A DNA stretch of 64,000 nt from Labilithrix sp. (GTDB lineage Bacteria > Myxococcota_A > Polyangia > Polyangiales > Polyangiaceae): positions 1,448,108 through 1,512,107 of the forward strand of contig JAHCIY010000002.1 of NCBI GenBank assembly GCA_026128965.1. The letters are read 5' to 3'. Of the stretch, positions 34,265 through 49,439 are shown one piece after another (position 1 is the first letter of the stretch; each line of letters begins with the position of its first letter). The translations under genes and the position numbers were made by a program. The notes under the pieces were generated by a model. It was given only the letters and a program-made list of their open reading frames with translations. It had not been told where the DNA came from and did not search any database.

Positions 34265-35560
34265 GTGAACGGGGAGATCCAACAACACCTCGACCGCCTG
34301 CGCGCCTTCGGCGGGCTCCGCCGCGAGCTGCGCGTGCTCGAGGACCTGGAAGGGATCGCGCGCGTGGCCCTCCGCTTCGCGGTCGACGTGCTCGGCTGCG
34401 CGCGCGCCGCGCTGTATTGCGCCGAGAAAGAGGACGGCGACTACGTCCGCCTCGCCGTCACCGACGAGACGCGCGCGACGCCGGCGTCGATCGAGCGCTC
34501 GTCCCCGCTCGGACAGGCGCTCGCGGACGCGGTGTGGACGACCGCCGATCCGATCGTGACCGCGTTCGGGGAAGGGGAGCCGATGGCCGCCGCCGTCGCG
34601 CTCCGCGGCTCGGCGGGGCAGCCGCTCGGCGCGCTCCTCGTCGCCGGCGCGCGCCTCGACGAGGAGCTCCTCGGCGAGCTCGCCTTCGACGTCGAGAGCG
34701 TCCTCGCGGTGCGCCTCATCGCGCAGCTCCGCGCGGAGGAGCTCGCGGTGCTCGAGATCCAGGAGCGCGAGCTCGTCGGCCTCTTGCGCGACGTCGAGGC
34801 GCGCGACGAGATCATCCAGCGCGATCTCGAAGAAGCGCGCCGCTTCCAGCGCCAGATGCTGGGGACGCCGCCGCGGATCGCGGGGGCGGCGGTCGAGGTC
34901 GTGTACACGCCGCTCGGCCTCGTCGGCGGCGACCTCTACGCCGTGTCGGCGGAGGACCGTCGCGTGCGCATGTTCGTCGCCGACGCGACGGGGCACGGCG
35001 TCCGCGCGTCGCTCACGACGATGTTCATCAAGAGCGGCTACGAGGCGGTCCGCCGCTCGGCGCCGGATCCGGCCTCGCTCCTCGCCGCGCTGAACGAGAC
35101 GATCGCCCACACCTACCGCAGCGCGGAGATGCTCTTCTCCGCGGTGTGCGTCGATCTCGACCTCGACACCGGGCGCCTGTGGATCGCGTCCGCCGCGCAC
35201 CCGCCCGCATGCATCGTCCGCGCCGGCGCGCCGGTCCTCCTCGAGGCCGGCGGCGCGTTCCTCGGGCTCCGGCCCGGCATGAAGTTTGGCCTCCACGAGG
35301 ATCGGATCGCGCCGGGAGATGGGGTCTACCTCTATACCGATGGATTCGTCGAAGCTCGAAAGGGGCAGGAGCAGTTCGGCGACGAGCGCTTCCAGGCCGC
35401 GATCGTGGACGCGCACGTCCGCGGAGAGAAGGCCGGCGCCGCGGTGCTGGCCGCGGTGACGGAGTTCCTCGCCGGTGGTGCGCTCGAGGACGACGGCACC
35501 TTCGTCGGCCTGCGTTTCGGGGTGGAGGACGACAGTGTGCCGAGCGTCCGGAGCGTCTGA
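34265..35560 (+). CDS. GAF-domain PP2C/SpoIIE-type serine phosphatase (RsbU/RsbP-like)
   Basis: GTG start. N-terminal GAF-like region, then GGDLYAV...RMFVADATGHGVRASL...YLYTDGFVEAR...DD.T phosphatase motifs. Confidence 0.85.
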   Translation: MNGEIQQHLDRLRAFGGLRRELRVLEDLEGIARVALRFAVDVLGCARAALYCAEKEDGDYVRLAVTDETRATPASIERSSPLGQALADAVWTTADPIVTAFGEGEPMAAAVALRGSAGQPLGALLVAGARLDEELLGELAFDVESVLAVRLIAQLRAEELAVLEIQERELVGLLRDVEARDEIIQRDLEEARRFQRQMLGTPPRIAGAAVEVVYTPLGLVGGDLYAVSAEDRRVRMFVADATGHGVRASLTTMFIKSGYEAVRRSAPDPASLLAALNETIAHTYRSAEMLFSAVCVDLDLDTGRLWIASAAHPPACIVRAGAPVLLEAGGAFLGLRPGMKFGLHEDRIAPGDGVYLYTDGFVEARKGQEQFGDERFQAAIVDAHVRGEKAGAAVLAAVTEFLAGGALEDDGTFVGLRFGVEDDSVPSVRSV

Positions 35561-35636
35561 GGTGAAATCGTCGAACCAGACGGATTCGTGCGATCGTGTT
35601 GCAGCGGCCGACACGCCGAGTAAGATCGCTGGGCCG

Positions 35637-36155
35637 ATGTCGACGCACGACGATCAGTCGCTCTTCGAGCTGCGCTTCCGGCCGACGGTGGCCCTCGCGT
35701 CGACGGTGCGTCGCTTCGTCGCGGAGTTCTACCGCGAGCTCCTCTCCGACGCCGACGTGAGCCACCGCCTCGCGATGGCGACGCACGAGATGCTCGAGAA
35801 CGCGGTCCACTACTCGATCGATCAGCGCTCCGAGCTCGTCATCTCCGCGCGCCGCGTCGAGGGCGAGCTCGTCGTCGCGATCCGGACGAAGAACCGCGCG
35901 ACGACGGAGCGCCTCGAGAAGGTGCGCCTCCACCTCGACGAGGTGCTCGGCGCGTCCGACGCCTCGGCGATGTACACCCGGCTCATGCATCGCGCCGCGA
36001 AGCGCACCGACGGCGGCAGCGGCCTCGGGCTCGGTCGCATCCGCGCGGAGGCCGACCTCGCGCTCTCGTACGCGATCGACGGCGACACGATCGCCGTCAC
36101 CGCCGAAGGGCATTTCCCACGCGCAGAAGGCGCGCTGCTGACAGGGGCCCCATGA
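35637..36155 (+). CDS. HATPase_c_2-like protein kinase (partner-switch kinase, SiaB/RsbW-like; tentative)
   Basis: Internal ATG at 35637 (MSTHDDQSLF). LAMATHEMLENAVHYS resembles the E..NA..H N-box of anti-sigma kinases. Gly-rich DGGSGLGLGRIR follows. Its stop overlaps the next start (ATGA). Confidence 0.6.
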   Translation: MSTHDDQSLFELRFRPTVALASTVRRFVAEFYRELLSDADVSHRLAMATHEMLENAVHYSIDQRSELVISARRVEGELVVAIRTKNRATTERLEKVRLHLDEVLGASDASAMYTRLMHRAAKRTDGGSGLGLGRIRAEADLALSYAIDGDTIAVTAEGHFPRAEGALLTGAP

Positions 36156-36547
36156 TCGACATCCCGAACATCGACGCGAACGATCTCCGTGCGGCCCCGA
36201 CCTTCACCGACGGGCAGCTCTCGGTCGTGTTCGCGGGCAGCGCCGACTCGCGCTCGCAGGACGCGATCCAGGAGCTGCTCCGTCGCGTCCACGCCGAGGC
36301 GATGCGCCTCCAGCTGCCCGAGGTCGCGATCGACTTCCGCGACTGCGACTTCGTGAACTCGTCGTGCTTCAAGGCGTTCGTCGTCTGGCTCGAGCAGATC
36401 CAGGAGCTCGACGAGAACCAGCAGTACCGCCTCCGCTTCTTCTCCGACGACACGAAGGCCTGGCAGAGGCGGAGCCTCCAAGCGCTCTCGTGCTTTGCGA
36501 TCGAGCTCGTTCATATCGAGTCGAAAGCCCGTCGTGTCGGCAGCTGA
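36152..36547 (+). CDS. Small acidic protein resembling STAS/DUF1987 (SiaC-like) phosphorylatable partner-switch proteins (tentative)
   Basis: 131 aa. Pattern LSVVFAGSADSRS...EVAIDFRDCDFVNSSCFKAFVVWLEQIQ recalls the phospho-Ser/Thr loop plus beta-strand of antagonist-type folds. Family call is from memory only. Confidence 0.5.
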   Translation: MIDIPNIDANDLRAAPTFTDGQLSVVFAGSADSRSQDAIQELLRRVHAEAMRLQLPEVAIDFRDCDFVNSSCFKAFVVWLEQIQELDENQQYRLRFFSDDTKAWQRRSLQALSCFAIELVHIESKARRVGS

Positions 36548-38030
36548 AGCGCTCCCGAACGACATCGTCGCTCAGTTTCGAGCGACGACGGTGGAGCGCC
36601 TCGGACGCATCGAAGAGGCGTGGGGCTCGCTCGCGCACGGCGTCGCGACGGCGGAGAACGAGTCGGAGCTGTTCCACGACGTCCACACGCTGAAGGGCGA
36701 GGCCCGCCTCGTCGGGTTCGCCGACGTCGTCCTGATCATCCAGCGGCTCGAGGACCTCCTCGTCGCCGCGCGCCGCCGCCGCTACCGCGTGAACGAGGAC
36801 GTCGACGTGCTCGTCACGATGGCGATCCAGTTCGCGCGCATGCTCGTGCGGAAGCGCCCCGGCGCGTCGAACGGCGGGATCGACATCGGCGGCTTCCTCA
36901 AGCAGATCGAGGACGTCCTCGCGGAGTGGCCGCGCCAGTCGGAGGGCCCGGAGTCGAACGGCGCCGCGTCGATGCGCCCGGCCGACGGCGGCAAGATCAC
37001 GGTCGCGATCCGGCAGCGCCTCGGCGGCGCGGCGACCCAGATCTTCCTCGAGATGCTCGTCGCGTCCGACCGGATCCGCCTCCGCCGCGCGTGGGACACG
37101 CTCGTCGGCGAGCTCGCCGGCCTCGACGCGGTGCCGCTCATGCCCGTCGCTCGCCACCACGCGGCGTCGGCGAAGGAGCTCGCGGCCGAGCTGGGGAAGG
37201 AGGTCGACGTCATCGTCGAGGGCCCCGATCTGCGCGTCGGCGTCGAGGTCCTCGACACGATCCACACGTCGCTCCTCCACTGCCTGCGCAACGCGGTCGA
37301 TCACGGGATCGAGCCGCCGAGCGCCCGCGTCGCCGCGGGCAAGCCGCGCCGCGGCAACGTCTGCGTGAAGGTCCGCGCCGAGACCGACAGCGTCGCGGTG
37401 ATCGTGCAGGACGACGGCGGCGGCGTCGACCTCGAGTCGATCCGCGATCGCGCGGCGAAGCTCGGGCTCCTCTCGGCCGAAGACGCGCTCGCCGCGCCGG
37501 AGGCGACGCTCCTCGATCTGACGTTCGCGGCCGGCTTCTCCGTGCGCGAGTCCGCGGGCACGGTGTCGGGCCGCGGCATCGGGCTCGACGCCGTGCGCGC
37601 AGGGATCGAGCGGCTCGGCGGGCGGATAGGGATCGCGTCCACGCGCGGCGTGGGGGCGATCGTGTCGTTCGAGGTCCCGAGCACGCGGCGCGTCGTCGAG
37701 GTGCATCGCCTCCCGTCGACGCAGGCCGGCCTCTCCTTCGCGATCCCGACGACGTGGACGGTGCGGAGCGGCAAGAGCGATTCGTACCTCGATCCAGTCA
37801 CCGTGCTCGCGCTCCGGCGCAACGAGCAGACCACGCCGACGGTGGGTCAGATCGTCGTCACGCGCGACGGCGAGGAGCACGGCCTCGTCATCGGCGGCCC
37901 CGTCTCGCGCGTCGCCGCGACGCGCATCGCGCCGACGTCGCCGGACGAGCCGCTCGAGGTCGTCGCGTTCGGCGGCGAGCACCTCCTGCTCCTCCGCCCC
38001 GAGGTGTTCTTCACCGCGCGCGGCCCCTGA
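36528..38030 (+). CDS. CheA-like histidine kinase (Hpt - dimerisation - HATPase - CheW-like), no P2 domain
   Basis: Likely GTG start near 36528-36531, overlapping the end of the 36152..36547 gene. N-terminal Hpt H-box HDVHTLKGEARLVGF; CheA-type N-box HCLRNAVDHGIEP; G-boxes DDGGGVD, GRGIGLDAV; C-terminal ~110-aa CheW-like domain. Confidence 0.85.
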   Translation, partial: PVVSAAEALPNDIVAQFRATTVERLGRIEEAWGSLAHGVATAENESELFHDVHTLKGEARLVGFADVVLIIQRLEDLLVAARRRRYRVNEDVDVLVTMAIQFARMLVRKRPGASNGGIDIGGFLKQIEDVLAEWPRQSEGPESNGAASMRPADGGKITVAIRQRLGGAATQIFLEMLVASDRIRLRRAWDTLVGELAGLDAVPLMPVARHHAASAKELAAELGKEVDVIVEGPDLRVGVEVLDTIHTSLLHCLRNAVDHGIEPPSARVAAGKPRRGNVCVKVRAETDSVAVIVQDDGGGVDLESIRDRAAKLGLLSAEDALAAPEATLLDLTFAAGFSVRESAGTVSGRGIGLDAVRAGIERLGGRIGIASTRGVGAIVSFEVPSTRRVVEVHRLPSTQAGLSFAIPTTWTVRSGKSDSYLDPVTVLALRRNEQTTPTVGQIVVTRDGEEHGLVIGGPVSRVAATRIAPTSPDEPLEVVAFGGEHLLLLRPEVFFTARGP

Positions 38031-38035
38031 TCGGA

Positions 38036-38404
38036 TCACGCCTCGCCGAGGACGCTCTTCACCTTCGCGAGCAGCGCGTCGGGTCCGGCCTTCTTCGTGA
38101 CCCAGCCGTCGACCTCGGCTTCGGCCGCGCGCCGGGCGAGCTCCTCCTCGTCGAGGCTCGAGAGGAGGAGGATCGGCGACGATACTTTGTACGCGCCGCG
38201 GAGCGCGCTCGCGAGGTCGTCGCCGAAGACCTCCGGCATCTGGACGTCGACGATGATGAGGTCGGGCGCGGCGCGCCGGCGCTCCGCTTCGAACGCGGCG
38301 ACCGTCGTCGCGGTCGCGACCTCGTAGCCGGCGCGCTCGAGCACGGCGCGCGTGAAGTCGAGCACGAGCGCGCTGTCGTCGATGAGGAGGATCCTACGCG
38401 GCAC
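38036..38404 (-). CDS. CheY-like single-domain response regulator
   Basis: RILLIDDSALV...LIIVDVQMPEV...SPILLLSS...WVTKK receiver motifs. Confidence 0.85.
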   Translation of the reverse strand: MPRRILLIDDSALVLDFTRAVLERAGYEVATATTVAAFEAERRRAAPDLIIVDVQMPEVFGDDLASALRGAYKVSSPILLLSSLDEEELARRAAEAEVDGWVTKKAGPDALLAKVKSVLGEA

Positions 38405-39143
38405 CGTATTCGCTCCACGGCGGCGCGCCGATCAGGAACTCGAGCGTGCAGAAGAGGTCCTTCAGCGCGATCGGCTTGGCGAGGAAGAGGTCGGCGCCGG
38501 CGTCGAGCATCGCCTGGCGCGCCGCCCTTCCGGCGCCGCTCATCCCGACGATGAAGGCGAGCCCGAGCTGGGTGTCGGCGCGGAGGCGCGAGACGAAGTC
38601 GGTGCCGGAGCTGGCCTTCAGCGTGTGATCGACGAGGAGGAGATCGAGGTCGGGGCGCGCGAGGCGCCACGCCTCCTCCGCCGTCGCCGCCTGCACGAGG
38701 CGGAGGCGGGCGGAGCGTTGCTTGAAGTAGCGCTCGAACGCGTACGCGAACGTGTCGCGAATGAGCTGGTTGTCCTCGACGAGCAAGACCGAGAGCTCGC
38801 GGTTCGCGAGCGCGCCGGGGACCGGGCGGATGCGCCGCGCGACCTCACGCGCGCGCTCTCGCTGCCGCTCGTCGGCGAAGTCGAAGGTCGCGACGAAGCC
38901 GGGCGGCGAGCCGGGACCGTCGGAGACGCGGATCTGCGTGACGGCGGCGGAGAGGCGGAGCGGGCGGAAGATGCGCGGGAACGAGAGCTCGACGCTCACG
39001 CGATGATCGAGAGGCGGGAGAAGCTCGGTGATCACGAAAACCGACTCTTCCGTCATCTCGATGGCACACGTCGTCTCCGCGAAGCCGTCGCGGAAGAGCT
39101 CGGCACGCAAGATCGCGCTGCGCTGTGCGCTCACGGTCGTCAC
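38394..39143 (-). CDS. Response regulator with N-terminal PilZ-like domain (tentative) and C-terminal receiver
   Basis: C-terminal REC (LSVLLVEDNQ...LLLVDHTLK...IVGMSG...AKP). N-terminal ~120 aa have an R(x)4R element and DGPGSPPG loop suggestive of a degenerate PilZ. Overlaps the downstream CheY-like gene by 11 nt. Confidence 0.6.
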   Translation of the reverse strand: MTTVSAQRSAILRAELFRDGFAETTCAIEMTEESVFVITELLPPLDHRVSVELSFPRIFRPLRLSAAVTQIRVSDGPGSPPGFVATFDFADERQRERAREVARRIRPVPGALANRELSVLLVEDNQLIRDTFAYAFERYFKQRSARLRLVQAATAEEAWRLARPDLDLLLVDHTLKASSGTDFVSRLRADTQLGLAFIVGMSGAGRAARQAMLDAGADLFLAKPIALKDLFCTLEFLIGAPPWSEYGAA

Positions 39144-39227
39144 TGCGATCAGGATAACGGTGCGTTCGCGCGCCGCGTAGAGCGTTCCATCGCGCCGGGA
39201 GACGAACGGTGCGATAGGGAGCGAGCA

Positions 39228-39482
39228 TCACTCCTCGGTGATGACGGCGTCGTGCGCGGCGGTGATCTGCGCAGCGACCGTCTTCCGCACCACTTCTTCG
39301 ATCGCGACGTCGACGTTCGTGACCTCGATCACGCCGCGGCCGTCGCTCTCGAGCCGCGCCTGCACGCCGCTCTCCTTCGGCAGGCCGAGCGCGCGGAGGT
39401 TCTCCTCGGTCCGCGCCTGGAGCGTGACCATCTCCGGCGCGCCGAAGGTCCCGCGGAACGTGAAGACGATGCTCTTCCTCAT
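39228..39482 (-). CDS. Small hypothetical protein (~85 aa)
   Basis: Internal ATG (MRKSIVFTFRGTFGAPE...). No recognisable motifs. Confidence 0.35.
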   Translation of the reverse strand: MRKSIVFTFRGTFGAPEMVTLQARTEENLRALGLPKESGVQARLESDGRGVIEVTNVDVAIEEVVRKTVAAQITAAHDAVITEE

Positions 39483-39574
39483 CCGCTGAATAGAGCGCGA
39501 TCCACGCGGCTCTTCAATGCTGCGCGAGGGCGCAGGATTGACTCCGCTCACCTGGGCTGTCATCTTCGTCGTCC

Positions 39575-39648
39575 GAGGCGGTGGAGTCCGCCCTCATCCG
39601 TTCGCTCCCTCGAAGGCAGCGAGCCAATGGCTCCTACGGCAGTGCCAT
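39575..39648 (+). ncRNA. Candidate fluoride riboswitch (crcB motif) aptamer with an RBS-sequestering expression platform
   Basis: GGCGGUGGAGUCCGCC (P1 stem GGCG/CGCC with an 8-nt loop, as in the GGCGAUGGnnnnCGCC consensus), a middle hairpin, then 3' CAAUGGCUCCUAC. Loop GGAGUC can pseudoknot with GGCUCC (one G-U). Downstream hairpin CCUCCG-N12-CGGAGG (39675-39698) buries the GGAGG RBS of the CLC gene. Confidence 0.55.
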
Positions 39649-39705
39649 GACTGGCGCCGTAGGTCATCGATAACCTCCGGCGCTTCACGACGCGGAGGTT
39701 GTGAC

Positions 39706-40998
39706 GTGCGATCGAACATCCTGGCGGCCCTGAAGAGGCGGGCGAACGCGCTCCTCCAGTGGATCGGGCTCGGGGCGGCGGTGGGGCTCGCCTGCGGCGG
39801 CGCGTCGGCGTTCTTCCTCACGCTGCTCGAGCACGCGACGCAGCTCCGCGAGTCGCACGAGCAGCTCGTCTACACGCTGCCGATCGCGGGCCTCGTCATC
39901 GGCTTCCTCTACGACCGCTGGGGGAAGCCGATCAAAGGCGGCAACAACCTCGTCCTCGACACGATGCACGAGAGCGCGCCGCAGATCCCGTTTCGCATGG
40001 CGCCGATGGTGCTCCTCGGCACCGTCCTCACCCACGTCTTCGGCGGCAGCGCGGGACGTGAAGGCACGGCGGTGCAGATGGGCGCGAGCCTCGCCGACGA
40101 GATCGCCCATCGAGCGCGCGTCGGCAAGGAGACGCGTCGCCAGCTCCTGGCGGCGGGGATCGCGGGCGGCTTCGGCTCGGTCTTCGGCACCCCCATCGCC
40201 GGGACGGTCTTCGGAATGGAGGTCGTCTCGGTCGGTCGCATCGAATACGACGCGTTCTTGCCGGCGCTCGTCGCGTCCGTCGTCGGTGACCTCGTCACGC
40301 GCCGGCTCGGGATCGTCCACACGCCGTATCCACGCCTCGCGCACGTCGAGCTCACCGGGATCGTCCTCGGGAAGCTCGCGGTCATGGCGGTGGCGATGGC
40401 CCTCGCGACGATCGCGTTCGTCGAGCTCACGCATCGCCTGAAGCACCTCCTCGAGCGAAAGATCCGTTGGCTCTCGGTCCGCATGTGCGTGGGCGGGATC
40501 TGCGTCGTCGTGATGTGGAAGCTGATCGGGACGAGCGACTACCTCGGGCTCGGCGTGCCGATGATCGTCCGCTCGTTCGACGATCCGAGCCTGCCGTGGT
40601 TCGCGTTCGCGGCGAAGCTCGTGTTCACGTCGGTGACGCTCGCGGCGGGCTTCCTCGGCGGCGAGGTGACCCCCCTCTTCTTCGTCGGCGCCACGCTCGG
40701 GAGCGTGCTGGCGCGTCTCCTTGGTCTGCCGATCGAGCTCGGCGCCGGGGTCGGCCTCGCCGCGGTCTTCGGCGCGGCCGCGAACACGCCGATCGCGCTC
40801 TCGATCATGGCGGTCGAGCTGCTCGGCGCGGAGGCGTTCCCGCACGTCGTGATCGTCTCGGTCATCGCGTACATCTTGACCGGTCACCGCGGGATCTACC
40901 CCGCGCAGCGGATCCAGCTGCGAAAGCACGGCGGGCTCTTGCGCCGTCCCGTCCCGCTCCGCGACTACCGCGACTCGACCGCGCCGCCCGACTCGTGA
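39706..40998 (+). CDS. CLC-family fluoride/proton antiporter (CLC-F, EriC-F type)
   Basis: GTG at 39706, 8 nt after GGAGG. CLC architecture with GNNLV in place of GSGIP and GREGT in place of GREGP (hallmarks recalled for the fluoride-specific CLC-F clade); GxxxGMEV second gating region; GTPIAG. Confidence 0.85.
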   Translation: MRSNILAALKRRANALLQWIGLGAAVGLACGGASAFFLTLLEHATQLRESHEQLVYTLPIAGLVIGFLYDRWGKPIKGGNNLVLDTMHESAPQIPFRMAPMVLLGTVLTHVFGGSAGREGTAVQMGASLADEIAHRARVGKETRRQLLAAGIAGGFGSVFGTPIAGTVFGMEVVSVGRIEYDAFLPALVASVVGDLVTRRLGIVHTPYPRLAHVELTGIVLGKLAVMAVAMALATIAFVELTHRLKHLLERKIRWLSVRMCVGGICVVVMWKLIGTSDYLGLGVPMIVRSFDDPSLPWFAFAAKLVFTSVTLAAGFLGGEVTPLFFVGATLGSVLARLLGLPIELGAGVGLAAVFGAAANTPIALSIMAVELLGAEAFPHVVIVSVIAYILTGHRGIYPAQRIQLRKHGGLLRRPVPLRDYRDSTAPPDS

Positions 40999-41094
40999 GG
41001 AGAGGAGCATGGACCCGATCGCGGACCCGCTGAACGCGCTCGAGCGGCTCGCCGCCGCGCTCCGTCCGCTCGCGATCACGAATCCGATTTGGAT

Positions 41095-42441
41095 TCAGCC
41101 GTAGTGGCTCGCCGGCGCCGGCGCCGGTGCCTTCGGCGAGCGCGGGATCTCGAACCAGAACGTCGCGCCGCGGCCGACCTCCGACTCGACGCCGGCGCGA
41201 CCGCCGTGCGCCTCCGCGAGGCGGCGCACCGTCGCGAGGCCGAGGCCGACGCCGGGCTCCTTCGTGCCCGGCGCGCGGACGTAGGGATCGAAGACGCGGG
41301 CGTGGAGCTCGCGCGCGAGGCCGGGACCGTTGTCGGCGACCTCGACGCGGACGGCGGAGCCGCGCTCGCGGGCGCGGATCTCGATGCGAGGCTCCTCTCC
41401 GTTGCCGTTGCCGTTGCCGTTGCCGATGTACTTGATCGCGTTCCGCGCGAGGTTCGCGATGAGGCTCGTGAGGACGCCCGGATCGCACGCCGCGACGAGG
41501 TCGGCGTCTTGCTTCGTCGTCAGCGCGATGCGCTTCTCCGCGACGGTGGGCTCGAGCTCGGCGACGAGGTCGGCGGTGATGCGCGCGACGTCGGCGCGCG
41601 CCCCGACGGCGGGCCGTCCCCCCGCGCGCGCGAACTCGAGGAGGCCGTTCACGAGGCGCTGGATCCGCTCGAGCGACGAGGTCCCGCGCTCGACGACGCG
41701 CGCGCGTTGCTTCGGATCTTCGGTCCGGCCGAGGATGTCGAGGGCGAAGCCGATCGCGCCGAGCGGGCTCAGGATGTCGTGCGCGACGCGGCCGGCGAAG
41801 CCTTCGAGCTCCGCCGCGCGCTCCTCTTGCAGCTGCCGCCGCCGCTCCGCGATCTCGCGATCGGCGCGGACGAAGCGCTGCACGAGGTACGCGCCGAGGA
41901 GCGCGAGGAGCGCGCACACGACGTCGAGCGCGAGGGCGACGCGGCTCGACTGCGCGCGGAGGTGCCGGATGCGGAGCGCCGACTCGCGCGTTCGCACCGC
42001 GCTCGCCTCGAGCGCCTCCGTGATCGCGTCCGACACGTCGCCGACGATCGGCAGGACGTCGTCCACGTCCGCGTCGTCGCGCTCGAGGCGCCGCAACATG
42101 CCGTCGAGCTCGTCCTTGGAGCGCCGCACGTCGCGCCAGCTCTCCTCCTCCCCGGGCAAGAGCGGGCGCGTGAGGTAGCCGTCGAGCGAGCGATCGAGGA
42201 CGTGGCGCGCGTCGACGAGCGCCGCGTTCTCCACTGGCTCGCGGCGGAGGACGAGGAGGAGGTGCCGCAGATCGCTGCGTGCGGCGGCGAGGTGCTCGAT
42301 GCCGGGCGCGGAGTCGTCGGCGATCTCGAGCGCCGCGTCGTCGATCGCGCGCAATTCCCAGTGCACGAACGCGGTCGCGGTGACGAACGAGAGGACCACG
42401 CCCGCGAAGATCGCGGGCAGGACTACGCGCGAGGTCGGCAT
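41095..42441 (-). CDS. Membrane sensor histidine kinase (HisKA + HATPase_c)
   Basis: Start at the internal ATG (MPTSRVVLPAIFAGVVLSF, TM1); second TM ~aa 190. H-box FAGRVAHDILSPLGAI; N-box LIANLARNAIKY; G-boxes DNGPGL, GVGLGLA. Contains a (GN)4-5 insertion encoded by (gttgcc)4. Confidence 0.85.
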   Translation of the reverse strand: MPTSRVVLPAIFAGVVLSFVTATAFVHWELRAIDDAALEIADDSAPGIEHLAAARSDLRHLLLVLRREPVENAALVDARHVLDRSLDGYLTRPLLPGEEESWRDVRRSKDELDGMLRRLERDDADVDDVLPIVGDVSDAITEALEASAVRTRESALRIRHLRAQSSRVALALDVVCALLALLGAYLVQRFVRADREIAERRRQLQEERAAELEGFAGRVAHDILSPLGAIGFALDILGRTEDPKQRARVVERGTSSLERIQRLVNGLLEFARAGGRPAVGARADVARITADLVAELEPTVAEKRIALTTKQDADLVAACDPGVLTSLIANLARNAIKYIGNGNGNGNGEEPRIEIRARERGSAVRVEVADNGPGLARELHARVFDPYVRAPGTKEPGVGLGLATVRRLAEAHGGRAGVESEVGRGATFWFEIPRSPKAPAPAPASHYG

Positions 42442-42532
42442 GCGTGACACCTCCGGCTGCGGGACTGTGCCCCGACAGCGAAGGCCTGCCATTCATTCCC
42501 GACGAATCGTGGTCGAGGTCGATCGTCGACTC

Positions 42533-43270
42533 TCACCACAGCTCGTGGCTGACGACGCGGAAGCCGCTCGAGAAGAAGGGAGGCATCGGCGAGTCGCCGG
42601 TGAAGCCGCGGCCGTACGTCCCGTCGAGCTGGAGGTGATCGTTGAAGATGATGCGGAACCCGACCTGGTACGCCGCGCCCGCGCCCGCGACGTACGGGTC
42701 GCCGGAGAAGACCTCGCCGATGAGGTGAAAATCGTAGATCGTCTCGACCTGCGTGCCGACGCCCCACGTGAATTTGACGGGGTCGAAGCCCTTCGCCGCG
42801 ATCGCCGATAATCCGATGTTGGCGTGAATGAGGAAGTCGTCTTCTTTGAAGAAGGCCTGCGTCATTGCCAAATAGCTGAACCCCGTCCAGCCCGGAGCGG
42901 AGAAGCCGCCGCGGCCGAGCGGCGGCACGGTGCCGGCGGAGAGCGCGAAGCCGGGCGGCCGGTTCGGGATCGTCTCGCGGAGGAGGACCTTGGCCTGCGC
43001 GACGGGGCCGGCGATGTCGTAGCCCTCCTCCCGCGTGCTGATGTTGCCGATGCCGTGCACGCCGCCGAGGGTGAGCTCGAGCCAGTCGTTGGGGCCGATC
43101 GCGGGGAGGATCCAGTGCTGGAGCGCGAGGTCGTCGCGGCGCCAGTAGGTCTCGAGCTGGAGGTGCCCCTTGCCGACCACGCGCGCGTCGTCGGTGATGA
43201 ACGGACGGATCGCCGCCGCCGGGGCGCTCACGAAGAGCGCGGCGAGCGCGAGGCCGAGGGTCAGCGCGCG
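42533..43270 (-). CDS. Putative outer-membrane beta-barrel protein (MetA-pathway/phenol-degradation-like transporter family; tentative)
   Basis: Signal peptide (LALAALFVSAPAAA), alternating amphipathic beta-strand pattern, C-terminal aromatic residue (…VSHELW). Start codon uncertain. Confidence 0.5.
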   Translation of the reverse strand, partial: RALTLGLALAALFVSAPAAAIRPFITDDARVVGKGHLQLETYWRRDDLALQHWILPAIGPNDWLELTLGGVHGIGNISTREEGYDIAGPVAQAKVLLRETIPNRPPGFALSAGTVPPLGRGGFSAPGWTGFSYLAMTQAFFKEDDFLIHANIGLSAIAAKGFDPVKFTWGVGTQVETIYDFHLIGEVFSGDPYVAGAGAAYQVGFRIIFNDHLQLDGTYGRGFTGDSPMPPFFSSGFRVVSHELW

Positions 43271-45000
43271 GCGCACTTCGGGTTCTTCCAGCGAAAGCGG
43301 TCGACGAGCACGACGGGATCGTCCTTCTTCAGCGGATCGACGCGGCCGAAGACCCACCCGTCGGCGTGACTACCATCCTTCTTGAAGCGCAGCCGGACGA
43401 AGTGCTTGTAGCCGGGGTGCGCGAGCGCGCTGAAGGCCTGATGCTGCTCGATGCCGAGCATCGTGAGCAGCATCAGGTACGCGCCGAGCGCGAGGGTCCC
43501 GACGTACACCGTGCCGGCGAGGCCGAGCGCGAGGAACGTGAGCGCGCGCGCGATGTGGAACCACAACAGCACCTCGAACACCACGAGCGGCAGGAGACCG
43601 ATGACGGAGCCGCACACGAGCGAGAGCGCCGCGACCTTGAGGCGGTTCTTGCGGAAGCCGCCGAGGAAGAAGCAGACGAGGAACGCGGCGAGCGCGACGA
43701 CGACGCTGAGCAAGCCGGCGCCTTCGTGCGTGCGCCACTGGTGCATGAAGATCGGCGCCTGCACGAGCGCGAGCACGGTGTGCACGACGAAGCCGGAGCG
43801 ACCGTGCGCGATCTGCCAGGGGACCTGGAGCGCGAGGACGACCGTCGTCGTCCGGCCGGGGAACTCGGCGTCGGGCTCGGGCAGGCCGCGCCGGTTGATC
43901 GTCGCGGGGTGGAGGAACGCGCCGCCGCCGCCGGCGAGGACCTGCATCCCGGGGCCCATCGTCTGGCGGCAGTAGTGATGCGTGTCGCCGGTGAGGACGA
44001 GGAGGCCGTCCTTCTCGATCCCGAGATCGAGCGCGGCGAGGATCTCCTGCCCCGCGCGGCTCGGCTCGAGGAACGCGTACGGCGGGTCGGCGACGCAGAG
44101 CACGATGCCGCGATCGGGGTCGCGCTCCTCCGCGAAGAACGCGCGCTGGTGGAAGTCGACGAGCCGGAGCTGGCGGTCGGCGCCCCAGAGATCGAGGTTG
44201 GGCGCGACGCGGAAGGTCCAGTAGCTCGCGTCCTGCACCGGCGTGTAGCCCGTCAGCGCGAGGGCGGCGCGCTTCACGACGTTGGTGCCGAGGCGGAAGG
44301 CCTCGACCCACTCGACGAAGTGCCCGATCTGGCCGAAGCGATCGACGGAGAGGTCGTCCTCCTTCTCCGCGCGCCCGAGCATGAGCCGCCGCGCGCGGAA
44401 CATGCGGCCGAAGCCGTCGAGCCCGGCGTACCAGTCGTGGTTGCCGGGGACGCCGAGCAGCGCGCGCTTCTTGTCGTCCGCGACGGTGCGGAGCACGGTG
44501 TTGAACGGCACGCAGACGCGGTTGTGGATCTCGACCTCGGTCGCGACCGGATAGGCGGTGTCGCCGCCGAAGAGGAGGACGTCGCCGCGCGGGAGGACGA
44601 GCTTCTTCGTCGGATCGTCGGGATCGTCGACCTCGTACTCGGACGCGATGAGGCGCGCGACGGCCTTGCTGACGGAGAAGTCGTCGCCGGTGTCGGAGAC
44701 GAAGTCGATCCAGACGTCGCCGTCGAGCGCCTCCGCGAGGCTGTCGGCGTCGGGGCGTGCGGCGCCGATCGTGTCGGCGAGGCGGCGCGTGAGCGCGCGC
44801 GCGGTGGCGGGGTGCATCCAGTCGCGCGAGTCGATGTCCTCCGTCGCGATGACGCTCGCGGCGAGGTGCCAGAGGTGACCCCAGAACGATTTGAAGCCGA
44901 ACCACGCGATCGCGCGCGGCCAGCGGTTGCCGCGGCGGTAGAACAACTTCGGCGCGTCCTCCGGCAGCGGCACGGGGACGACGACGGACGGCTCGGGCAC
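43261..45000 (-). CDS. Calcineurin-like metallophosphoesterase with C-terminal multi-pass membrane domain
   Basis: Metallophosphoesterase motifs GDTGDDF (D-x-H/GD), GDTAYP (GDxxY), GNHDW (GNH[DE]), GDTHHY. The last ~170 aa contain 4-5 hydrophobic helices. Confidence 0.8.
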   Translation of the reverse strand: MPEPSVVVPVPLPEDAPKLFYRRGNRWPRAIAWFGFKSFWGHLWHLAASVIATEDIDSRDWMHPATARALTRRLADTIGAARPDADSLAEALDGDVWIDFVSDTGDDFSVSKAVARLIASEYEVDDPDDPTKKLVLPRGDVLLFGGDTAYPVATEVEIHNRVCVPFNTVLRTVADDKKRALLGVPGNHDWYAGLDGFGRMFRARRLMLGRAEKEDDLSVDRFGQIGHFVEWVEAFRLGTNVVKRAALALTGYTPVQDASYWTFRVAPNLDLWGADRQLRLVDFHQRAFFAEERDPDRGIVLCVADPPYAFLEPSRAGQEILAALDLGIEKDGLLVLTGDTHHYCRQTMGPGMQVLAGGGGAFLHPATINRRGLPEPDAEFPGRTTTVVLALQVPWQIAHGRSGFVVHTVLALVQAPIFMHQWRTHEGAGLLSVVVALAAFLVCFFLGGFRKNRLKVAALSLVCGSVIGLLPLVVFEVLLWFHIARALTFLALGLAGTVYVGTLALGAYLMLLTMLGIEQHQAFSALAHPGYKHFVRLRFKKDGSHADGWVFGRVDPLKKDDPVVLVDRFRWKNPKCAAR

Positions 45001-45077
45001 GACCGCCTCTTACTACATCCCTGTGGAGAAAATCCCGCGCAACCACCGCGAAGGGCGGTCGAACGACGCGCACACAC

Positions 45078-46346
45078 ATGACGCACGAGACGACCGAGAT
45101 CGACGTGGTCACCGCCAAGGCGCCGCCGCGGCTCTTCCTCGAGGTCCAGGACGGCGGCCGCACGCGGCGCGTCCCGCTCGAAGACCGACCGATGACGGTC
45201 GGCAGCGCGTCCGGCGTCGACATCCGGATCGACGATCCGACCGTGAGCGCGCAGCAGTGCACGATCGCGCTGGAGGACAAGGGCGTGCACGTCGCCGACA
45301 CCGGCTCGAAGAACGGGACGTTCATCGGCGGCGCGCGCGTGCGGGACGGTTGGGGCGCGCCGGGGGCGGTCATCGTCGCGGGGCGCGTCACGATCGTCTG
45401 CGCGGCGGCGAGCGGCGATGAGGAGGCCGACGTCGTCACCGGCGCGCCGCTCCCCGGCATCGCGGGGGCGTCGAGCGCGATGCTGCGCGTGGCGCGCCAG
45501 GTGCGCTGGCTCGCGAACCACGCCGCGCCGGTGCTCGTCACCGGTGAGACCGGGGTCGGGAAGGAGCTCGTCGCGCGCGCGCTCCACCGCGAAGGCGCGC
45601 GGAGCGAGGCGGAGTTCGTCGCGCTCAACGTCGCGGCGCTCCCGCGCGAGCTGGTCGAGAGCGAGCTCTTCGGCCACGAGCGCGGGGCGTTCACCGGCGC
45701 GACCGCGCGGCGCGACGGCGCGTTCGTCGAGGCCGAGGGCGGGACGCTGTTCCTCGACGAGATCGGCGAGCTCCCGAGCGACGCGCAGCCGAAGCTCCTC
45801 CGCGCGCTCGACGGCTACGAGGTCCGCCGCGTCGGCGGCGCCGGTTCGGGGAAACGAACCGACGTGCGCGTCGTCGCGGCGACGCACGTGCCGCTCCTCG
45901 AGCACGTCCGCGCGGGCCGCTTCCGGCGGGACCTCTTCCACCGGCTCGAGGTCTTCGTCGTCGAGATCCCGCCGCTGCGCGCGCGTCCGGGCGACATCCT
46001 CCCGATCGCGAGCACGATCCTCCAGCAGCTCGAGCCTCAGATCGGCGAGCGCGATCTCACGCCCGGCGCGAGCGCGCTCCTCACCGCGCACGAGTGGCCC
46101 GGCAACGTCCGCGAGCTGCGCAACGTGCTGCTCCGCGCGGCGGGGCTCTCGAACGAGTCGCGGTGGATCCACGCGCAGGCGATCACGCGCGCGATGGCGC
46201 CGCGGGCCGGGCCGAAGGTCCTCGGCTTCACGCCCGATCGCGCGCGCGACTGGCTCGCGAGCCACGCCGGCAACGTGAGCGCCGCCGCGCGCGCGGCGAA
46301 GATGCCGCGGACTACGTTCCGTAAGCTCTTGGCGAGGACGGGATGA
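45078..46346 (+). CDS. FHA-domain sigma-54-dependent transcriptional activator (FHA - AAA+ sigma54 interaction - HTH)
   Basis: FHA signature (MTVGSASGVDIRIDDPTVSAQQCTI...GSKNGTFIGG); Walker A GETGVGKE; GAFTGA motif in ERGAFTGA; Walker B LFLDEIGEL; arginine finger region; C-terminal Fis-type HTH. Confidence 0.9.
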   Translation: MTHETTEIDVVTAKAPPRLFLEVQDGGRTRRVPLEDRPMTVGSASGVDIRIDDPTVSAQQCTIALEDKGVHVADTGSKNGTFIGGARVRDGWGAPGAVIVAGRVTIVCAAASGDEEADVVTGAPLPGIAGASSAMLRVARQVRWLANHAAPVLVTGETGVGKELVARALHREGARSEAEFVALNVAALPRELVESELFGHERGAFTGATARRDGAFVEAEGGTLFLDEIGELPSDAQPKLLRALDGYEVRRVGGAGSGKRTDVRVVAATHVPLLEHVRAGRFRRDLFHRLEVFVVEIPPLRARPGDILPIASTILQQLEPQIGERDLTPGASALLTAHEWPGNVRELRNVLLRAAGLSNESRWIHAQAITRAMAPRAGPKVLGFTPDRARDWLASHAGNVSAAARAAKMPRTTFRKLLARTG

Positions 46347-46366
46347 CATGCGAAAGGTCGTAGCGG

Positions 46367-47683
46367 ATGCCCGATACGGACGCGCTGAAGCAGTGGGGGC
46401 TCGGCGCCTTCGCCGTCCTCTTGTTGGTGGGGACCGGGGTGAAGGTCTGCGGCGGGGGCCCTCCGCCGAAGCCGGTGCCGGTCGTCGTCGCGCCCGAGCC
46501 GTCGGCGGCGCCGCCCGTCGTCGCGGCGCCGCTGCCGAAATCGAAGGTCGGCCTCAGCGCGCCGATCGCGGCGGCGTGGATGCCGGGCGGAGACGTCGTC
46601 GTCGCGGGGCTCGACGTGCCGACGAGGACGATCCGTGTACAGCGCATCGACAAGCTCGACGCCGTCGTCGCGAACGAGCCCGCGTTCGACGACGTCGCGT
46701 GGTCGACGGACGCCGACCTCAAGGTCGCCGCGTCGGCGGAGGGCGCCTTCGTGACGTGGCGCGGTCTCCGCGGCGGCAAGCTCGTGCGCGAGCTCGCGTT
46801 CTTCGGCCCCGACCTCGCGAAGCGCGGCGCGCCGATCGACGTCGCGGCCGCGTCGTGCGCGACGCGGGCGGGGATCTGGTTCGCCGACGCCGCGCTCGTC
46901 ACGAGCGTCGGGTGGAGCGGCGACCGCGCGACCTTCGCGCTGCCGAAGGACAAGGAGGCCGCGCTCCTCTGCTCCGCGACGCGCGCGTACGCGGTCCTCG
47001 AGGAGGACGAGCAGACGAGCATCCTCCCGCTCCACGACGACGCGGGCGCGCCGGTGGTGATGACGCGTGAGAGCGACTTCGGCGAGGACGATCAGCGCGA
47101 GCTCGCCGAGTACACCGTCGGCGACGAGGTCGGCGTCGTGCGCCTCGCGCTCTCCGGCGCGGTCGCGCTCCGCGAGACGAAGGCGGGCGTGCCCGACGCG
47201 CTGCACAAGCTGGCGACCACGATCGGCCGCGACGACGACGTGGTCGCGGTGGACGCGACGTCGAAGATGGTCGTGATCGTCTACACCCAGGACGCGGCCG
47301 GCTGCAAAGCGGACGAGACGGGCTCGCGCGTCATGGCGCTCCGCGTCGATCGCCGCTCGTTCGAGGAGTCGGTGGTGGAGCTCGCGCCCGCGCGCTGCGG
47401 GGGCGAAAACGGCCCGTTCTTCACCGGCGTCCTCGAGGACCAGCTCTCGGTCGCGTGGGTCGAGCGCACCGCCGGCGTCGGCAAGGCCCGCGCTCCGATC
47501 GCGGGCCTCACGCACACGCACGTCGATCTCCTCGGCGCGCCGATCGCGACCCACCTCGATCAGCCCGCCGACGCGATCGTCGACGCCGGCTGCGACGGCG
47601 CGAAGTGCTTCGCCGTCGCGCTCGTCCGCCACGACGCCGAGGACGCGAAGACGCCCGGCTACGCGCGCGTCATTCGCTGGTGA
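46367..47683 (+). CDS. Hypothetical secreted/membrane-anchored protein
   Basis: N-terminal hydrophobic segment (LGAFAVLLLVGTG) and Pro-rich linker. Protein-like composition for 438 aa. 21 nt downstream of the sigma54 activator on the same strand. Confidence 0.55.
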   Translation: MPDTDALKQWGLGAFAVLLLVGTGVKVCGGGPPPKPVPVVVAPEPSAAPPVVAAPLPKSKVGLSAPIAAAWMPGGDVVVAGLDVPTRTIRVQRIDKLDAVVANEPAFDDVAWSTDADLKVAASAEGAFVTWRGLRGGKLVRELAFFGPDLAKRGAPIDVAAASCATRAGIWFADAALVTSVGWSGDRATFALPKDKEAALLCSATRAYAVLEEDEQTSILPLHDDAGAPVVMTRESDFGEDDQRELAEYTVGDEVGVVRLALSGAVALRETKAGVPDALHKLATTIGRDDDVVAVDATSKMVVIVYTQDAAGCKADETGSRVMALRVDRRSFEESVVELAPARCGGENGPFFTGVLEDQLSVAWVERTAGVGKARAPIAGLTHTHVDLLGAPIATHLDQPADAIVDAGCDGAKCFAVALVRHDAEDAKTPGYARVIRW

Positions 47684-47685
47684 GC

Positions 47686-48040
47686 TCACTCCGCCGAGGA
47701 GCCGCCGCCTTCGTCGAGGCCGCCGGCGCCGACGCGGAGCGTGACGAGCTCGGCGAGGATCGCGGCCACGTCGACGGGCGCGCCGGGTTCGTCGTAGCGG
47801 AGCTCGTTCGTCTCCTCGCGGCCGGCGCGGAAGACGACGACGTCCATCGCGTCGCTCCGGAGCGCCTTCGCCTCGATGAAGTCGCTCATCGTGCGGGTCC
47901 GCTTCCCGTTCACCGAGAGGAGGACGTCGCCGTAGCGGATCCCGGCGCGCGCGGCGGGCGTGCCTCCGAGCGCGCCCAGTACCGGGATCCCCTCGAGCGC
48001 CTTGGCGAGGGCGAAGAGCGACGACTTCGCGATCAGACGT
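47686..48040 (-). CDS. PDZ-domain protein (start codon unresolved)
   Basis: GIPVLGALGGTPAARAGIRYGDVLLSVNGKRTRTMSDFIEA is a PDZ carboxylate-binding loop plus core. The upstream part of the track ORF is Arg-rich junk that overlaps the REC-DUF4388 gene. No canonical start is visible right after that gene's stop. Confidence 0.4.
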
Positions 48041-49146: not shown

Positions 49147-49439
49147 GGCGCGCCCTGCTGCAGCGCACATGCCGCCGGCGCAAGCCCGCGTCTTCGCGAA
49201 ATCCGGGCTCCGAACGGGGCGCGACCCGTCCGGCGCTCCGGACGCCACCGTCCGGAGGGCCGGACACCGGCGAGCGAACGCGCGCGCAAAACGAGGAGCT
49301 CTCCGCGGCATGCCGCTTGCGACTTCGGATCGGCTGGCGCGAAGCGACCAAGCGCCGATCACCGAAGGAGAGCCGACATGCCCCATGAGCCCCATCACGT
49401 GTTCGAGCCGCGCGCGGACGACCCTCTCGGCGGGACGTC

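Follow-up and report, generated by a model that had tools for sequence, protein, structure and literature searches.

In the genome of the myxobacterium Labilithrix sp., the stretch immediately upstream of a CLC-family transporter gene carries two incompatible descriptions. The public record (P0001) translates it as the N-terminal part of a 493-aa protein, whereas an initial annotation of the DNA took it for a fluoride riboswitch. This raises the question of whether the stretch acts as a regulatory RNA, and if so, by which mechanism it would control the transporter. We investigated it computationally in a window of 64,000 nt (contig JAHCIY010000002.1, positions 1,448,108–1,512,107), and all coordinates below refer to this window. 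Our main reading, with a probability of about 0.85, is that an upstream promoter and a fluoride riboswitch control a monocistronic CLC-F gene beginning at GTG 39706, most likely by means of a translational ON switch. Judged by its sequence, the element is an ordinary though genuine RNA switch for sensing fluoride, placed before a gene for fluoride export. The occurrence of fluoride riboswitches before CLC-F genes has been on record since 2012; hence, this instance adds little to the biology, and its value is practical.

The fluoride aptamer and its homologs

The proposed aptamer comprises the following features:

39577..39637, + strand: fluoride riboswitch aptamer (RF01734 match, homologous leaders and covariation)
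39577..39592, + strand: P1, GGCG 39577–80 with CGCC 39589–92 (sequence and RF01734 alignment)
39581–88, + strand: 8-nt loop of P1, GUGGAGUC (sequence and RF01734 alignment)
39600..39624, + strand: extended P3, with 7 bp between GUUCGCU 39600–06 and AGCGAGC 39618–24 (minimum-free-energy fold)
39608–10/39614–16, + strand: inner 3-bp stem of P3 (minimum-free-energy fold)
39626–37, + strand: 3′ tail, AAUGGCUCCUAC (sequence)
39625..39637, + strand: 3′ tail element, CAAUGGCUCCUAC, which includes C39625, the partner of G39581
39583–88 with 39629–34, + strand: pseudoknot between GGAGUC of the P1 loop and GGCUCC of the tail (6/6 complementary, one U–G)

The P1 stem with its 8-nt loop, the central hairpin and the 3′ tail, as well as the loop–tail pseudoknot, had all been pointed out in the initial annotation, and each of them was recovered here. 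The covariance-model search that it proposed gave a more divided outcome. In a permissive scan, RF01734 matched 39568–39643 over the whole model (positions 1–64) with 26.1 bits, corresponding to E = 2.9e-5 with the 401-nt leader as search space and E = 0.0047 with the whole window. This full-length match nevertheless falls below the curated Rfam gathering score of 34 bits, and a scan of the window at that level returned no match; default Rfam annotation therefore misses the riboswitch. The window copy has the lowest score of its group, with the orthologous leaders at 28.3–31.6 bits and only the Minicystis copy (L006), at 39.6 bits, exceeding the gathering score. Thus, across Labilithrix (type strain L. 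luteola included) and its relatives, fluoride riboswitches that lie 2–8 bits under the gathering score go unannotated.

The core nucleotides U7, G8, A40, U41, G42, U48, A49 and C50 are all retained in the window aptamer. The cmscan alignment places U39582, G39583, U39628 and G39629 at consensus U7, G8, U41 and G42, whose phosphates, according to the 2012 structure, are said to hold the Mg2+/F− cluster. Like the Thermotoga petrophila aptamer (PDB 4ENC) and the RF01734 consensus, the window RNA combines P1 and its 8-nt loop with P3, joins loop and tail in an H-type pseudoknot of 6 bp, displays U–G at loop positions 7–8 along with A40-U41-G42 and U48-A49-C50, and is part of the 5′ leader of a gene for a fluoride exporter, 69 nt upstream of the start codon and on the same strand. 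Long-range tertiary pairing in the fluoride aptamer involves a reversed Watson–Crick 6–38 pair and a reversed Hoogsteen A40–U48 pair (PMC11586693). A39627 and U39635 correspond to the latter, while G39581 stands where the T. petrophila structure has A6, and C39625 corresponds to nucleotide 38. The window copy hence differs from these references in having G–C in place of the A6–U38 pair and A in place of G39, such that three positions adjoining the pocket (A6G, U38C and G39A) are off consensus. It further shows AUCC in the P1–P3 junction where the consensus has AACC, and a 17-nt insertion that makes P3 a 25-nt hairpin of 7 + 3 bp, as opposed to about 4 bp and a loop. The predicted binding of fluoride could be weaker in the window aptamer, given the AUCC junction and the U–G in the pseudoknot.

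Homologous aptamers were found to precede CLC-F orthologs in five Labilithrix/Minicystis genomes and on 20 metagenome contigs; the loci with such an aptamer include L001, L002, L004, L005, L006, L110 and L111. In contrast, none was detected, even with permissive thresholds, at the other Myxococcota CLC-F loci compared (L003 and L007–L011). We then measured covariation over 93 distinct aptamers aligned as anchored segments of fixed length, with the metagenomic members drawn by a search pattern in which P1, G6 and some of the pseudoknot were preset. Across P1, P3 and the pseudoknot, 98.5% of the cells are paired and 12 of 16 pairs show double-sided changes, values that none of 500 shuffles reached. 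Taken separately, P1 is paired in 99.2% of cells, P3 in 94.6% with all four core pairs covarying, and the pseudoknot in 100% with five of its six pairs covarying, the metagenomic rows having been kept only if their pseudoknot was complementary at 6/6 positions. Compensatory changes in P3 are evident relative to both L005 (GUCCGC/GCGGGC) and L006. RNAalifold, run on an ungapped alignment of 19 sequences, recovered P1 and missed P3 because the register of P3 shifts among the sequences. The covariation, along with the recurrence of homologous leaders before orthologous CLC genes, indicates that the aptamer is more than a chance resemblance; together with the full-length RF01734 match, sub-threshold as it is, it confirms the earlier prediction of a crcB-motif (RF01734) fluoride aptamer at 39577–39637 on the plus strand.

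The CLC-F gene and its candidate promoter

The gene downstream of the aptamer and its diagnostic motifs are as follows:

39706..40998, + strand: predicted CLC-F fluoride/proton antiporter gene, 430 aa, GTG start (6D0J match, Pfam and codon-position GC)
39940–54, + strand: GNNLV motif, residues 79–83
40054–68, + strand: GREGT motif, residues 117–121
40657–74, + strand: GGEVTP motif

The product matches the Pfam Voltage_CLC family (9e-67), and its best relative of solved structure is the CLC-F antiporter 6D0J (238 bits, E = 2e-69, residues 22–404), compared to 32 bits and E = 5.6e-7 for the best ClcA match; it also fails to reach the NCBIfam thresholds of ClcA and ClcB. In CLC-F proteins, Asn or Met stands at the place of the canonical Ser of helix D, and Thr or Val comes after Glu_ex, with the two positions cosegregating (PMC4113899). 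Here GNNLV aligns with GMNLV of CLC-eca and GREGT with GREGV. The Asn of the former and the Thr of the latter place the window protein in the N–T subclade, as in the CLC-F antiporters (eriC-F) CLC-pst, CLC-rpi and CLC-psy, which likewise have Asn for the chloride-coordinating Ser (PMC4113899); it further resembles CLC-F antiporters in the conserved GGEVTP and the riboswitch before the gene. It is unlike CLC-eca (6D0J), a member of the M–V subclade, in its subclade and in coming from the Myxococcota (Labilithrix). The Glu_ex and the second glutamate of CLC-eca are given as E118 and E318 (PMC12035849). The glutamates of GREGT and GGEVTP are identical in the 6D0J alignment, with GGEVTP falling on the stretch expected to hold E318, and the two probably correspond to E118 and E318, respectively. 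These comparisons support a fluoride-type CLC of the N–T subclade, predicted to be a fluoride/proton antiporter, and bear out the identification made in the initial annotation from the same two motifs; the alternative it had named, closer alignment to chloride-type CLCs, was not what we observed.

Conservation among the leaders also points to a promoter:

39538..39543, + strand: candidate −35 box, TTGACT
39561..39566, + strand: candidate −10 box, CATCTT, 17 nt after the −35 box

A scan with the strict sigma-70 consensus found no promoter; the boxes are proposed on the basis of conservation. TTGAC occurs 37–42 nt 5′ of the aptamer in all eight leaders compared, and an nAnnCT hexamer follows at the same 16–17 nt spacing in L001, L002, L004, L005, L110 and L111. 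This putative promoter would imply transcription from about 39572–39575, i.e., directly before P1. The flanking ORFs, one upstream at 39228–39563 on the minus strand and a small one at 41009–41104, yielded neither a family nor any conservation. The unit does adjoin a signaling island, as remarked in the initial annotation; a search for a functional link to the neighboring signaling genes found none.

The expression platform and the mode of control

From the aptamer tail to the SD lie four pairing segments that form the following alternatives:

39633..39663, + strand: hairpin A (minimum-free-energy fold)
39633–40, + strand: 5′ arm of hairpin A, CCUACGGC, overlapping the aptamer tail
39644–47/39652–55, + strand: inner stem of hairpin A (minimum-free-energy fold)
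39656–63, + strand: 3′ arm of hairpin A, GCCGUAGG (minimum-free-energy fold)
39654–63 with 39674–83, + strand: alternative helix, GCGCCGUAGG with CCUCCGGCGC (pairing across leaders)
39670..39702, + strand: SD-sequestering hairpin (fold of −17.3 kcal/mol)

In the minimum-free-energy fold, the anti-SD CCUCC (39674–78) pairs with the SD GGAGG (39694–98), the longer match CCUCCG 39674–79/CGGAGG 39693–98 covering the whole SD; in the window leader with the aptamer unlocked, the probability that the SD is unpaired is 0.04. The initial annotation had drawn this sequestration along with CCUACGG 39633–39/CCGUAGG 39657–63 as an alternative pairing, and both are present on the plus strand. The anti-SD/SD core is conserved among the leaders, CCUACG...CGUAGG is found in 26 of 26 CLC-F leaders, and so are all four platform segments. 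The alternative helix is paired in 94.8% of cells, against 44–46% in slid registers, and three of its pairs covary, at positions that the sequestering hairpin leaves in its loop; this covariation is modest, with five doubly changed cells in an alignment anchored by complementarity and so biased towards pairing. When the transcript stops short of the SD, the alternative helix is the minimum-energy fold.

From this platform we infer the direction and kinetics of switching as follows. Transcription from the promoter just upstream would yield an mRNA that begins with ~60 nt of folded aptamer, comprising P1, a long P3 and the 6-bp pseudoknot of the P1 loop with the 3′ tail. Without fluoride, the tail segment CCUACGGC would pair with GCCGUAGG as hairpin A, leaving the anti-SD free to bind the SD and turning translation off. 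With fluoride, the pseudoknot and the A–U linchpin pair would keep the tail inside the aptamer, and the released GCGCCGUAGG would capture the nascent CCUCCGGCGC while the SD is still to be transcribed; the SD and the start codon would then remain accessible and the exporter would be made.

Leaders of Pseudomonas syringae eriC-F and of Burkholderia pseudomallei serve as translational controls (PMC12667848). As in those riboswitches, the window leader shows no intrinsic terminator, an upstream anti-SD that sequesters the SD and a tail that overlaps the platform. It probably differs from them in having four segments, since a further relay hairpin (tail:arm) separates the aptamer from the anti-SD.

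The foremost alternative accepts the aptamer and places the control in transcription, for example through termination by Rho in the leader or the first part of the coding region while the SD is closed, with the SD hairpin acting only indirectly. Equilibrium folding lends this improbable yet credible view some weight: the SD hairpin of the window is closed in both states, and a purely thermodynamic translational switch is not evident. Nearest-neighbor folding with the aptamer locked does not predict SD release in the window leader, the unpaired probability of the SD going from 0.04 to 0.00 and the cost of opening it rising from 1.4 to 5.2 kcal/mol. Further, riboswitches often couple the repression of translation to termination by Rho. 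Across the leaders, however, the SD becomes cheaper to open once the aptamer is locked (from 6.8 to 5.0 kcal/mol, p = 0.004), and locking helps SD opening in 15 of 26 relatives. Against transcriptional control, we found no intrinsic-terminator-like site in 39300–39800, and the conserved elements are the anti-SD, the SD and the start codon. Moreover, relatives have a leader ORF that begins at the controlled start and runs into the CLC-F start codon (NTGA overlap), an arrangement that makes sense only if translation is the controlled step. Thus, of the switch foreseen in the initial annotation, the pairings stand in 26 leaders, while the window SD stays closed at equilibrium with the aptamer locked; a translational ON switch is most likely the best reading of the platform, even though folding energies for the window do not reproduce it. 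The conserved platform could be tested in the fluoride riboswitch as a model system.

Integrity, ligand and reading frame of the leader

The low RF01734 score, the AUCC junction and the 17-nt insertion in P3 could also mark a decaying, non-functional relic before a CLC-F gene that is constitutive or silent. We consider this quite improbable, as the ligand-core positions are all intact, the pseudoknot is fully complementary, P3 is maintained by the compensatory changes relative to L005 and L006, and conservation extends over the entire leader, promoter boxes and platform included, among genomes with CLC proteins of only 78–85% identity.

The 6–38 pair bears on the identity of the ligand. Over the 93 aptamers, it is G–C in 79, A–U in 12, G–U in two and A–C in none, with A40 and U48 invariant; of 115 pattern matches that were chosen by G6 alone and whose pseudoknot is 6/6 complementary, 113 have C38. 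Soil metagenomes commonly contain the G–C version, which usually scores above the Rfam cut-off, with only the long-P3 Labilithrix-type sub-lineage being missed. In the literature covered, we found no paper on the G–C form, which may nevertheless have been described before. Recognition of another ligand by the G–C/A39 variant, suggested by the three substitutions adjoining the pocket, is very improbable: the 6–38 change is compensatory, most such variants exceed the gathering score, and the genes that follow G-variant aptamers are mostly tied to fluoride export or fluoride sensitivity (34 CrcB, 20 CLC-F, 5 DUF190 and 3 enolase, besides 18 Na+/H+ exchangers, with ORFs downstream of metagenomic aptamers called by third-position GC).

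With fluoride as the predicted ligand, the A–U to G–C change at 6–38 provides a clean natural covariation data set; should it shift the affinity for fluoride or the rate of folding, it would also be a natural means of tuning a very well-studied model riboswitch. Labilithrix-type leaders might even constitute a distinct fluoride riboswitch sub-class, defined by the G–C 6–38 pair with A39, the long P3 and a kinetic relay platform, in which four segments may act in succession (aptamer tail:arm, arm:anti-SD, anti-SD:SD) and which in some species drives a leader ORF with an NTGA overlap onto the CLC-F start; we regard this proposal as tentative and somewhat doubtful.

Finally, that 39517–39705 is coding, as deposited, with the RNA-like features coincidental, has in its favor the open frame running from ATG 39517 into the CLC gene and the use of that ATG in the public record, and is hardly tenable given that RNA covariation occurs there without protein conservation, the conserved TTGAC box is situated 3′ of ATG 39517, and the orthologs have 417–450 aa. 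GC by codon position is flat in this stretch (0.65/0.65/0.63), whereas third-position GC is 0.93–0.97 from 39706 onward. The SD lies 7 nt before GTG 39706, and L002 has the same layout, with an equivalent GTG start after GGAGG. On these compositional and comparative grounds, the true start is GTG 39706 and not ATG 39517; the deposited CLC-F coding sequence runs 63 codons too far upstream, through the riboswitch.

The aptamer and its CLC-F gene

By its sequence, the window unit is a fluoride riboswitch followed by the gene for a CLC-F exporter, as the initial annotation had proposed. The leader elements named there, namely the P1 stem, its 8-nt loop, a central hairpin and a pseudoknot joining tail and loop, are all present in the sequence read from 39200 to 41300, and the pseudoknot is complementary at 6/6 positions.

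Aptamer elements in the window
39577-80 and 39589-92, +: P1, GGCG/CGCC
39581-88, +: P1 loop, 8 nt, GUGGAGUC
39600-39624, +: P3, the central hairpin
39625-37, +: aptamer 3' tail, CAAUGGCUCCUAC
39583-88 and 39629-34, +: pseudoknot, GGAGUC with GGCUCC
G39581/C39625, +: tertiary pair 6-38 (reversed Watson-Crick)
A39627/U39635, +: tertiary pair A40-U48 (reversed Hoogsteen)

At default Rfam settings, the fluoride riboswitch model RF01734 returned no match in the whole window. A permissive scan recovered one fluoride-type match in it, at 39568-39643, with E = 2.9e-5 on the 401-nt leader and 0.0047 on the whole window. The cmsearch check suggested earlier thus gave a full-length match (model positions 1-64) of 26.1 bits, under the gathering score of 34. 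The low score stems from a ~17-nt insertion in P3 relative to RF01734 in the alignment, together with the changes GGCGAUGG to GGCGGUGG, GGCUGAUGA to GAGCCAAUGG and AACC to AUCC from consensus to window.

The downstream frame codes for a CLC protein (Pfam Voltage_CLC, 9e-67) that scores under both the NCBIfam ClcA and ClcB cut-offs. Among all PDB sequences, its top matches were three CLC-F fluoride/proton antiporter entries, with 238 bits for 6D0J (E = 2e-69, residues 22-404) versus only ~30 bits for the chloride-type ClcA. Its GNNLV (79-83) and GREGT (117-121), on which the CLC-F call had been based, align with GMNLV and GREGV of CLC-eca, the protein of 6D0J; GGEVTP (318-323) is likewise conserved. 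CLC-F proteins lack the canonical Ser and instead display Asn or Met, strictly paired with Thr or Val beside Glu_ex, defining N-T and M-V subclades (PMC4113899). This signature upholds the call and places the window protein in the N-T subclade.

An identical public protein (P0001, a 493-aa 'chloride channel protein' from a Labilithrix sp. MAG) starts at ATG 39517, with a reading frame that passes through the promoter and riboswitch. This start is opposed by the flat codon-position GC of 39517-39705 (0.65/0.65/0.63; third-position GC is 0.93-0.97 from 39706 on), the orthologue lengths of 417-450 aa, the equivalent GTG start after GGAGG in the related locus L002, and the position of ATG 39517 upstream of the conserved TTGAC box. 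The true start is GTG 39706 (+), 7 nt after the SD, and the product has 430 aa. That this lineage scores under the Rfam cut-off, with a mis-called start as the consequence, is a modest addition to the initial finding.

The 6-38 pair in related aptamers

A genome scan with the window CLC protein yielded 31 loci. Using regular expressions and alignment, we found the aptamer core GGCGGUGGAGUCCGCC ... GCCAAUGRCUCCUAC upstream of CLC-F in four Labilithrix genomes and Minicystis rosea, with differing P3 sequences. By Rfam, the Labilithrix aptamers, including that of the L. luteola type strain, score 28.3-31.6 bits, under the gathering score, and the Minicystis aptamer 39.6 bits; no aptamer was detected by Rfam in L003 and L007-L011, and CLC-F homologues of other phyla have canonical aptamers upstream.

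A metagenome pattern scan with G fixed at position 6 and positions 38-39 free produced at least 121 matches; among those listed, 115 have a fully complementary pseudoknot, with C38 in 113 (91 CA, 22 CG) and U38 in 2. Where the P3 stem is ordinary, G-variants clear the gathering score with 37-48 bits; lower scores are confined to the long-P3 Labilithrix type (L110, 32.8 bits; L111, 32.3 bits). Thus, the G-C variant already falls within the recognised family. Among the matches listed, G-variant aptamers precede genes for CrcB (34), CLC-F homologues of 60-75% identity (20), Na+/H+ exchangers (18), dynamin-family GTPases (10), DUF190 (5), enolase (3) and a few singletons. As CrcB, Na+/H+ exchangers, DUF190, enolase and the like are typical fluoride riboswitch targets, fluoride is likely still the ligand of the G-variants. 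The GTPase genes (Pfam Dynamin_N, 4e-24) lie directly 3' of the aptamer in L037, L039, L057, L064 and L073, an arrangement repeated with metagenomic G-variants in L076, L084, L118, L144 and L150; fluoride riboswitches are not known to be associated with dynamin GTPases.

We then assessed covariation in 93 distinct aptamers cut to anchored, equal-length segments. Standard pairs occupy 98.5% of cells versus 29-53% in slid registers, 12/16 pairs show double-sided changes, and 0/500 shuffles reached any observed measure, in a set whose metagenome rows were chosen by a pattern that held P1 and G6 fixed along with some of the pseudoknot, whose imperfect-pseudoknot rows were dropped, and whose P3 register was set by complementarity. 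The 6-38 pair is G-C in 79, A-U in 12, G-U in 2 and A-C in 0; the 18 aptamers from CLC-gene searches or Rfam, unselected at position 6, comprise 6 G-C and 12 A-U. In natural sequences this tertiary pair covaries cleanly, from A-U to G-C, which is a second modest addition. Since the Labilithrix MAG locus L001 has both types, the swap is leader-specific rather than genome-wide drift. No description of the G-C form was found in the searchable literature, from which two primary papers were out of reach, and we therefore make no claim of novelty.

The A-U aptamer of L001 (47.5 bits, within 5546-7242, -) is canonical and lies 3 kb from the G-C-type CLC-F aptamer, on the opposite strand. Downstream of it come a 101-aa ORF similar to the enolase N-terminus and then a 435-aa CLC-like paralogue with GLGGPS instead of the GREG motif. 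Two nearby fluoride aptamers, often on opposite strands as divergent fluoride-responsive units, occur on several contigs (L020, L037 and L064).

Expression platform and leader ORFs

Strict consensus scans matched no promoter or terminator. In 8/8 leaders compared, a TTGAC box precedes the aptamer by 37-42 nt, and in the seven Labilithrix-type leaders an nAnnCT hexamer comes 16-17 nt after the box; none was assigned in the Minicystis locus L006.

Platform elements in the window
39633-40 and 39656-63, +: hairpin A (tail:arm helix), CCUACGGC/GCCGUAGG
39670-39702, +: SD-sequestering hairpin, anti-SD CCUCC 39674-78, SD GGAGG 39694-98

Four segments recur in 26/26 CLC-F leaders: aptamer tail CCUACG..., arm ...CCGUAGG, anti-SD CCUCCGGYGC, and a last one made up of SD and start codon. 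The minimum-energy fold includes both the tail:arm and anti-SD:SD helices. Alternatively, arm GCGCCGUAGG (39654-63) can pair with anti-SD CCUCCGGCGC (39674-83) at 9/10 positions, and this helix is the minimum-energy fold of transcripts ending at 39686 or 39690, when the SD is not yet made. The anti-SD region is the exact site of the arm's best complement in 22/26 leaders. In the anchored alignment, the arm:anti-SD helix is paired in 94.8% of cells versus 44-46% when slid; three of its pairs show double-sided changes, and its covariation score was reached by 3/500 shuffles. The covarying positions fall within the SD hairpin's loop, so pairing in that hairpin cannot account for them. The anti-SD:SD core shows conservation but hardly any covariation.

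In equilibrium models, locking the aptamer reduced the mean SD-opening cost over the 26 leaders from 6.8 to 5.0 kcal/mol (lower in 15/26, Wilcoxon p = 0.004); for the window alone it rose from 1.4 to 5.2 kcal/mol, with P(unpaired) going from 0.04 to 0.00. Of the translational switch first proposed, SD sequestration and the CCUACGG/CCGUAGG pairing match a platform kept in the 26 leaders, but equilibrium folding of the window gives no SD release. These models being equivocal, we infer an ON-switch from the architecture, the covariation and the order of folding; the relay-type translational platform, which is conserved, would be a further modest addition.

In the window and L002, the CLC-F start itself is the controlled start. 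In L. luteola (L004, 2926-3004), the controlled start belongs to a leader ORF of 22 codons, the TGA of which shares bases with the CLC-F ATG (ATGA), and in L001 (2755-3004) a 78-codon leader ORF ends as GTGA on the CLC-F GTG, overlaps that fit translation-level control. A 49-codon ORF is present in L006 (2800-2959). These leader ORFs suggest translational coupling.

Genomic surroundings

The unit is monocistronic, with a divergent no-family ORF upstream and a convergent histidine kinase downstream. Its placement beside a signalling island was correctly noted: the dense cluster spans 34265-49289, and no link of these genes to fluoride is evident.

Neighbouring genes
34265-35560: SpoIIE-type phosphatase
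36495-38030: Hpt-HATPase kinase
38036-39143, -: two response regulators
39228-39563, -: divergent ORF of 111 aa (84 aa if begun at ATG 39482); high third-position GC
41009-41104, +: 31-codon ORF (MDPIADPLNALERLAAALRPLAITNPIWIQP), strong SD (GGAGAGGAG)
41095-42492, -: convergent histidine kinase
45078-46346: FHA-sigma54 activator
48033-49289, -: response regulator with DUF4388

The divergent ORF has no Pfam or NCBIfam match, and tblastn found no match to it beside CLC-F in relatives; its long form would overlap the inferred riboswitch promoter. The 31-codon ORF begins 11 nt past the CLC-F stop, overlaps the 3' end of the kinase gene and is conserved in none of the fetched loci. Elsewhere in the window, a sub-threshold Rfam V_AS9 match (59629-59732, +; 36.7 bits, gathering score 50, E = 0.0094) and two microRNA-model matches are probably GC-rich noise.
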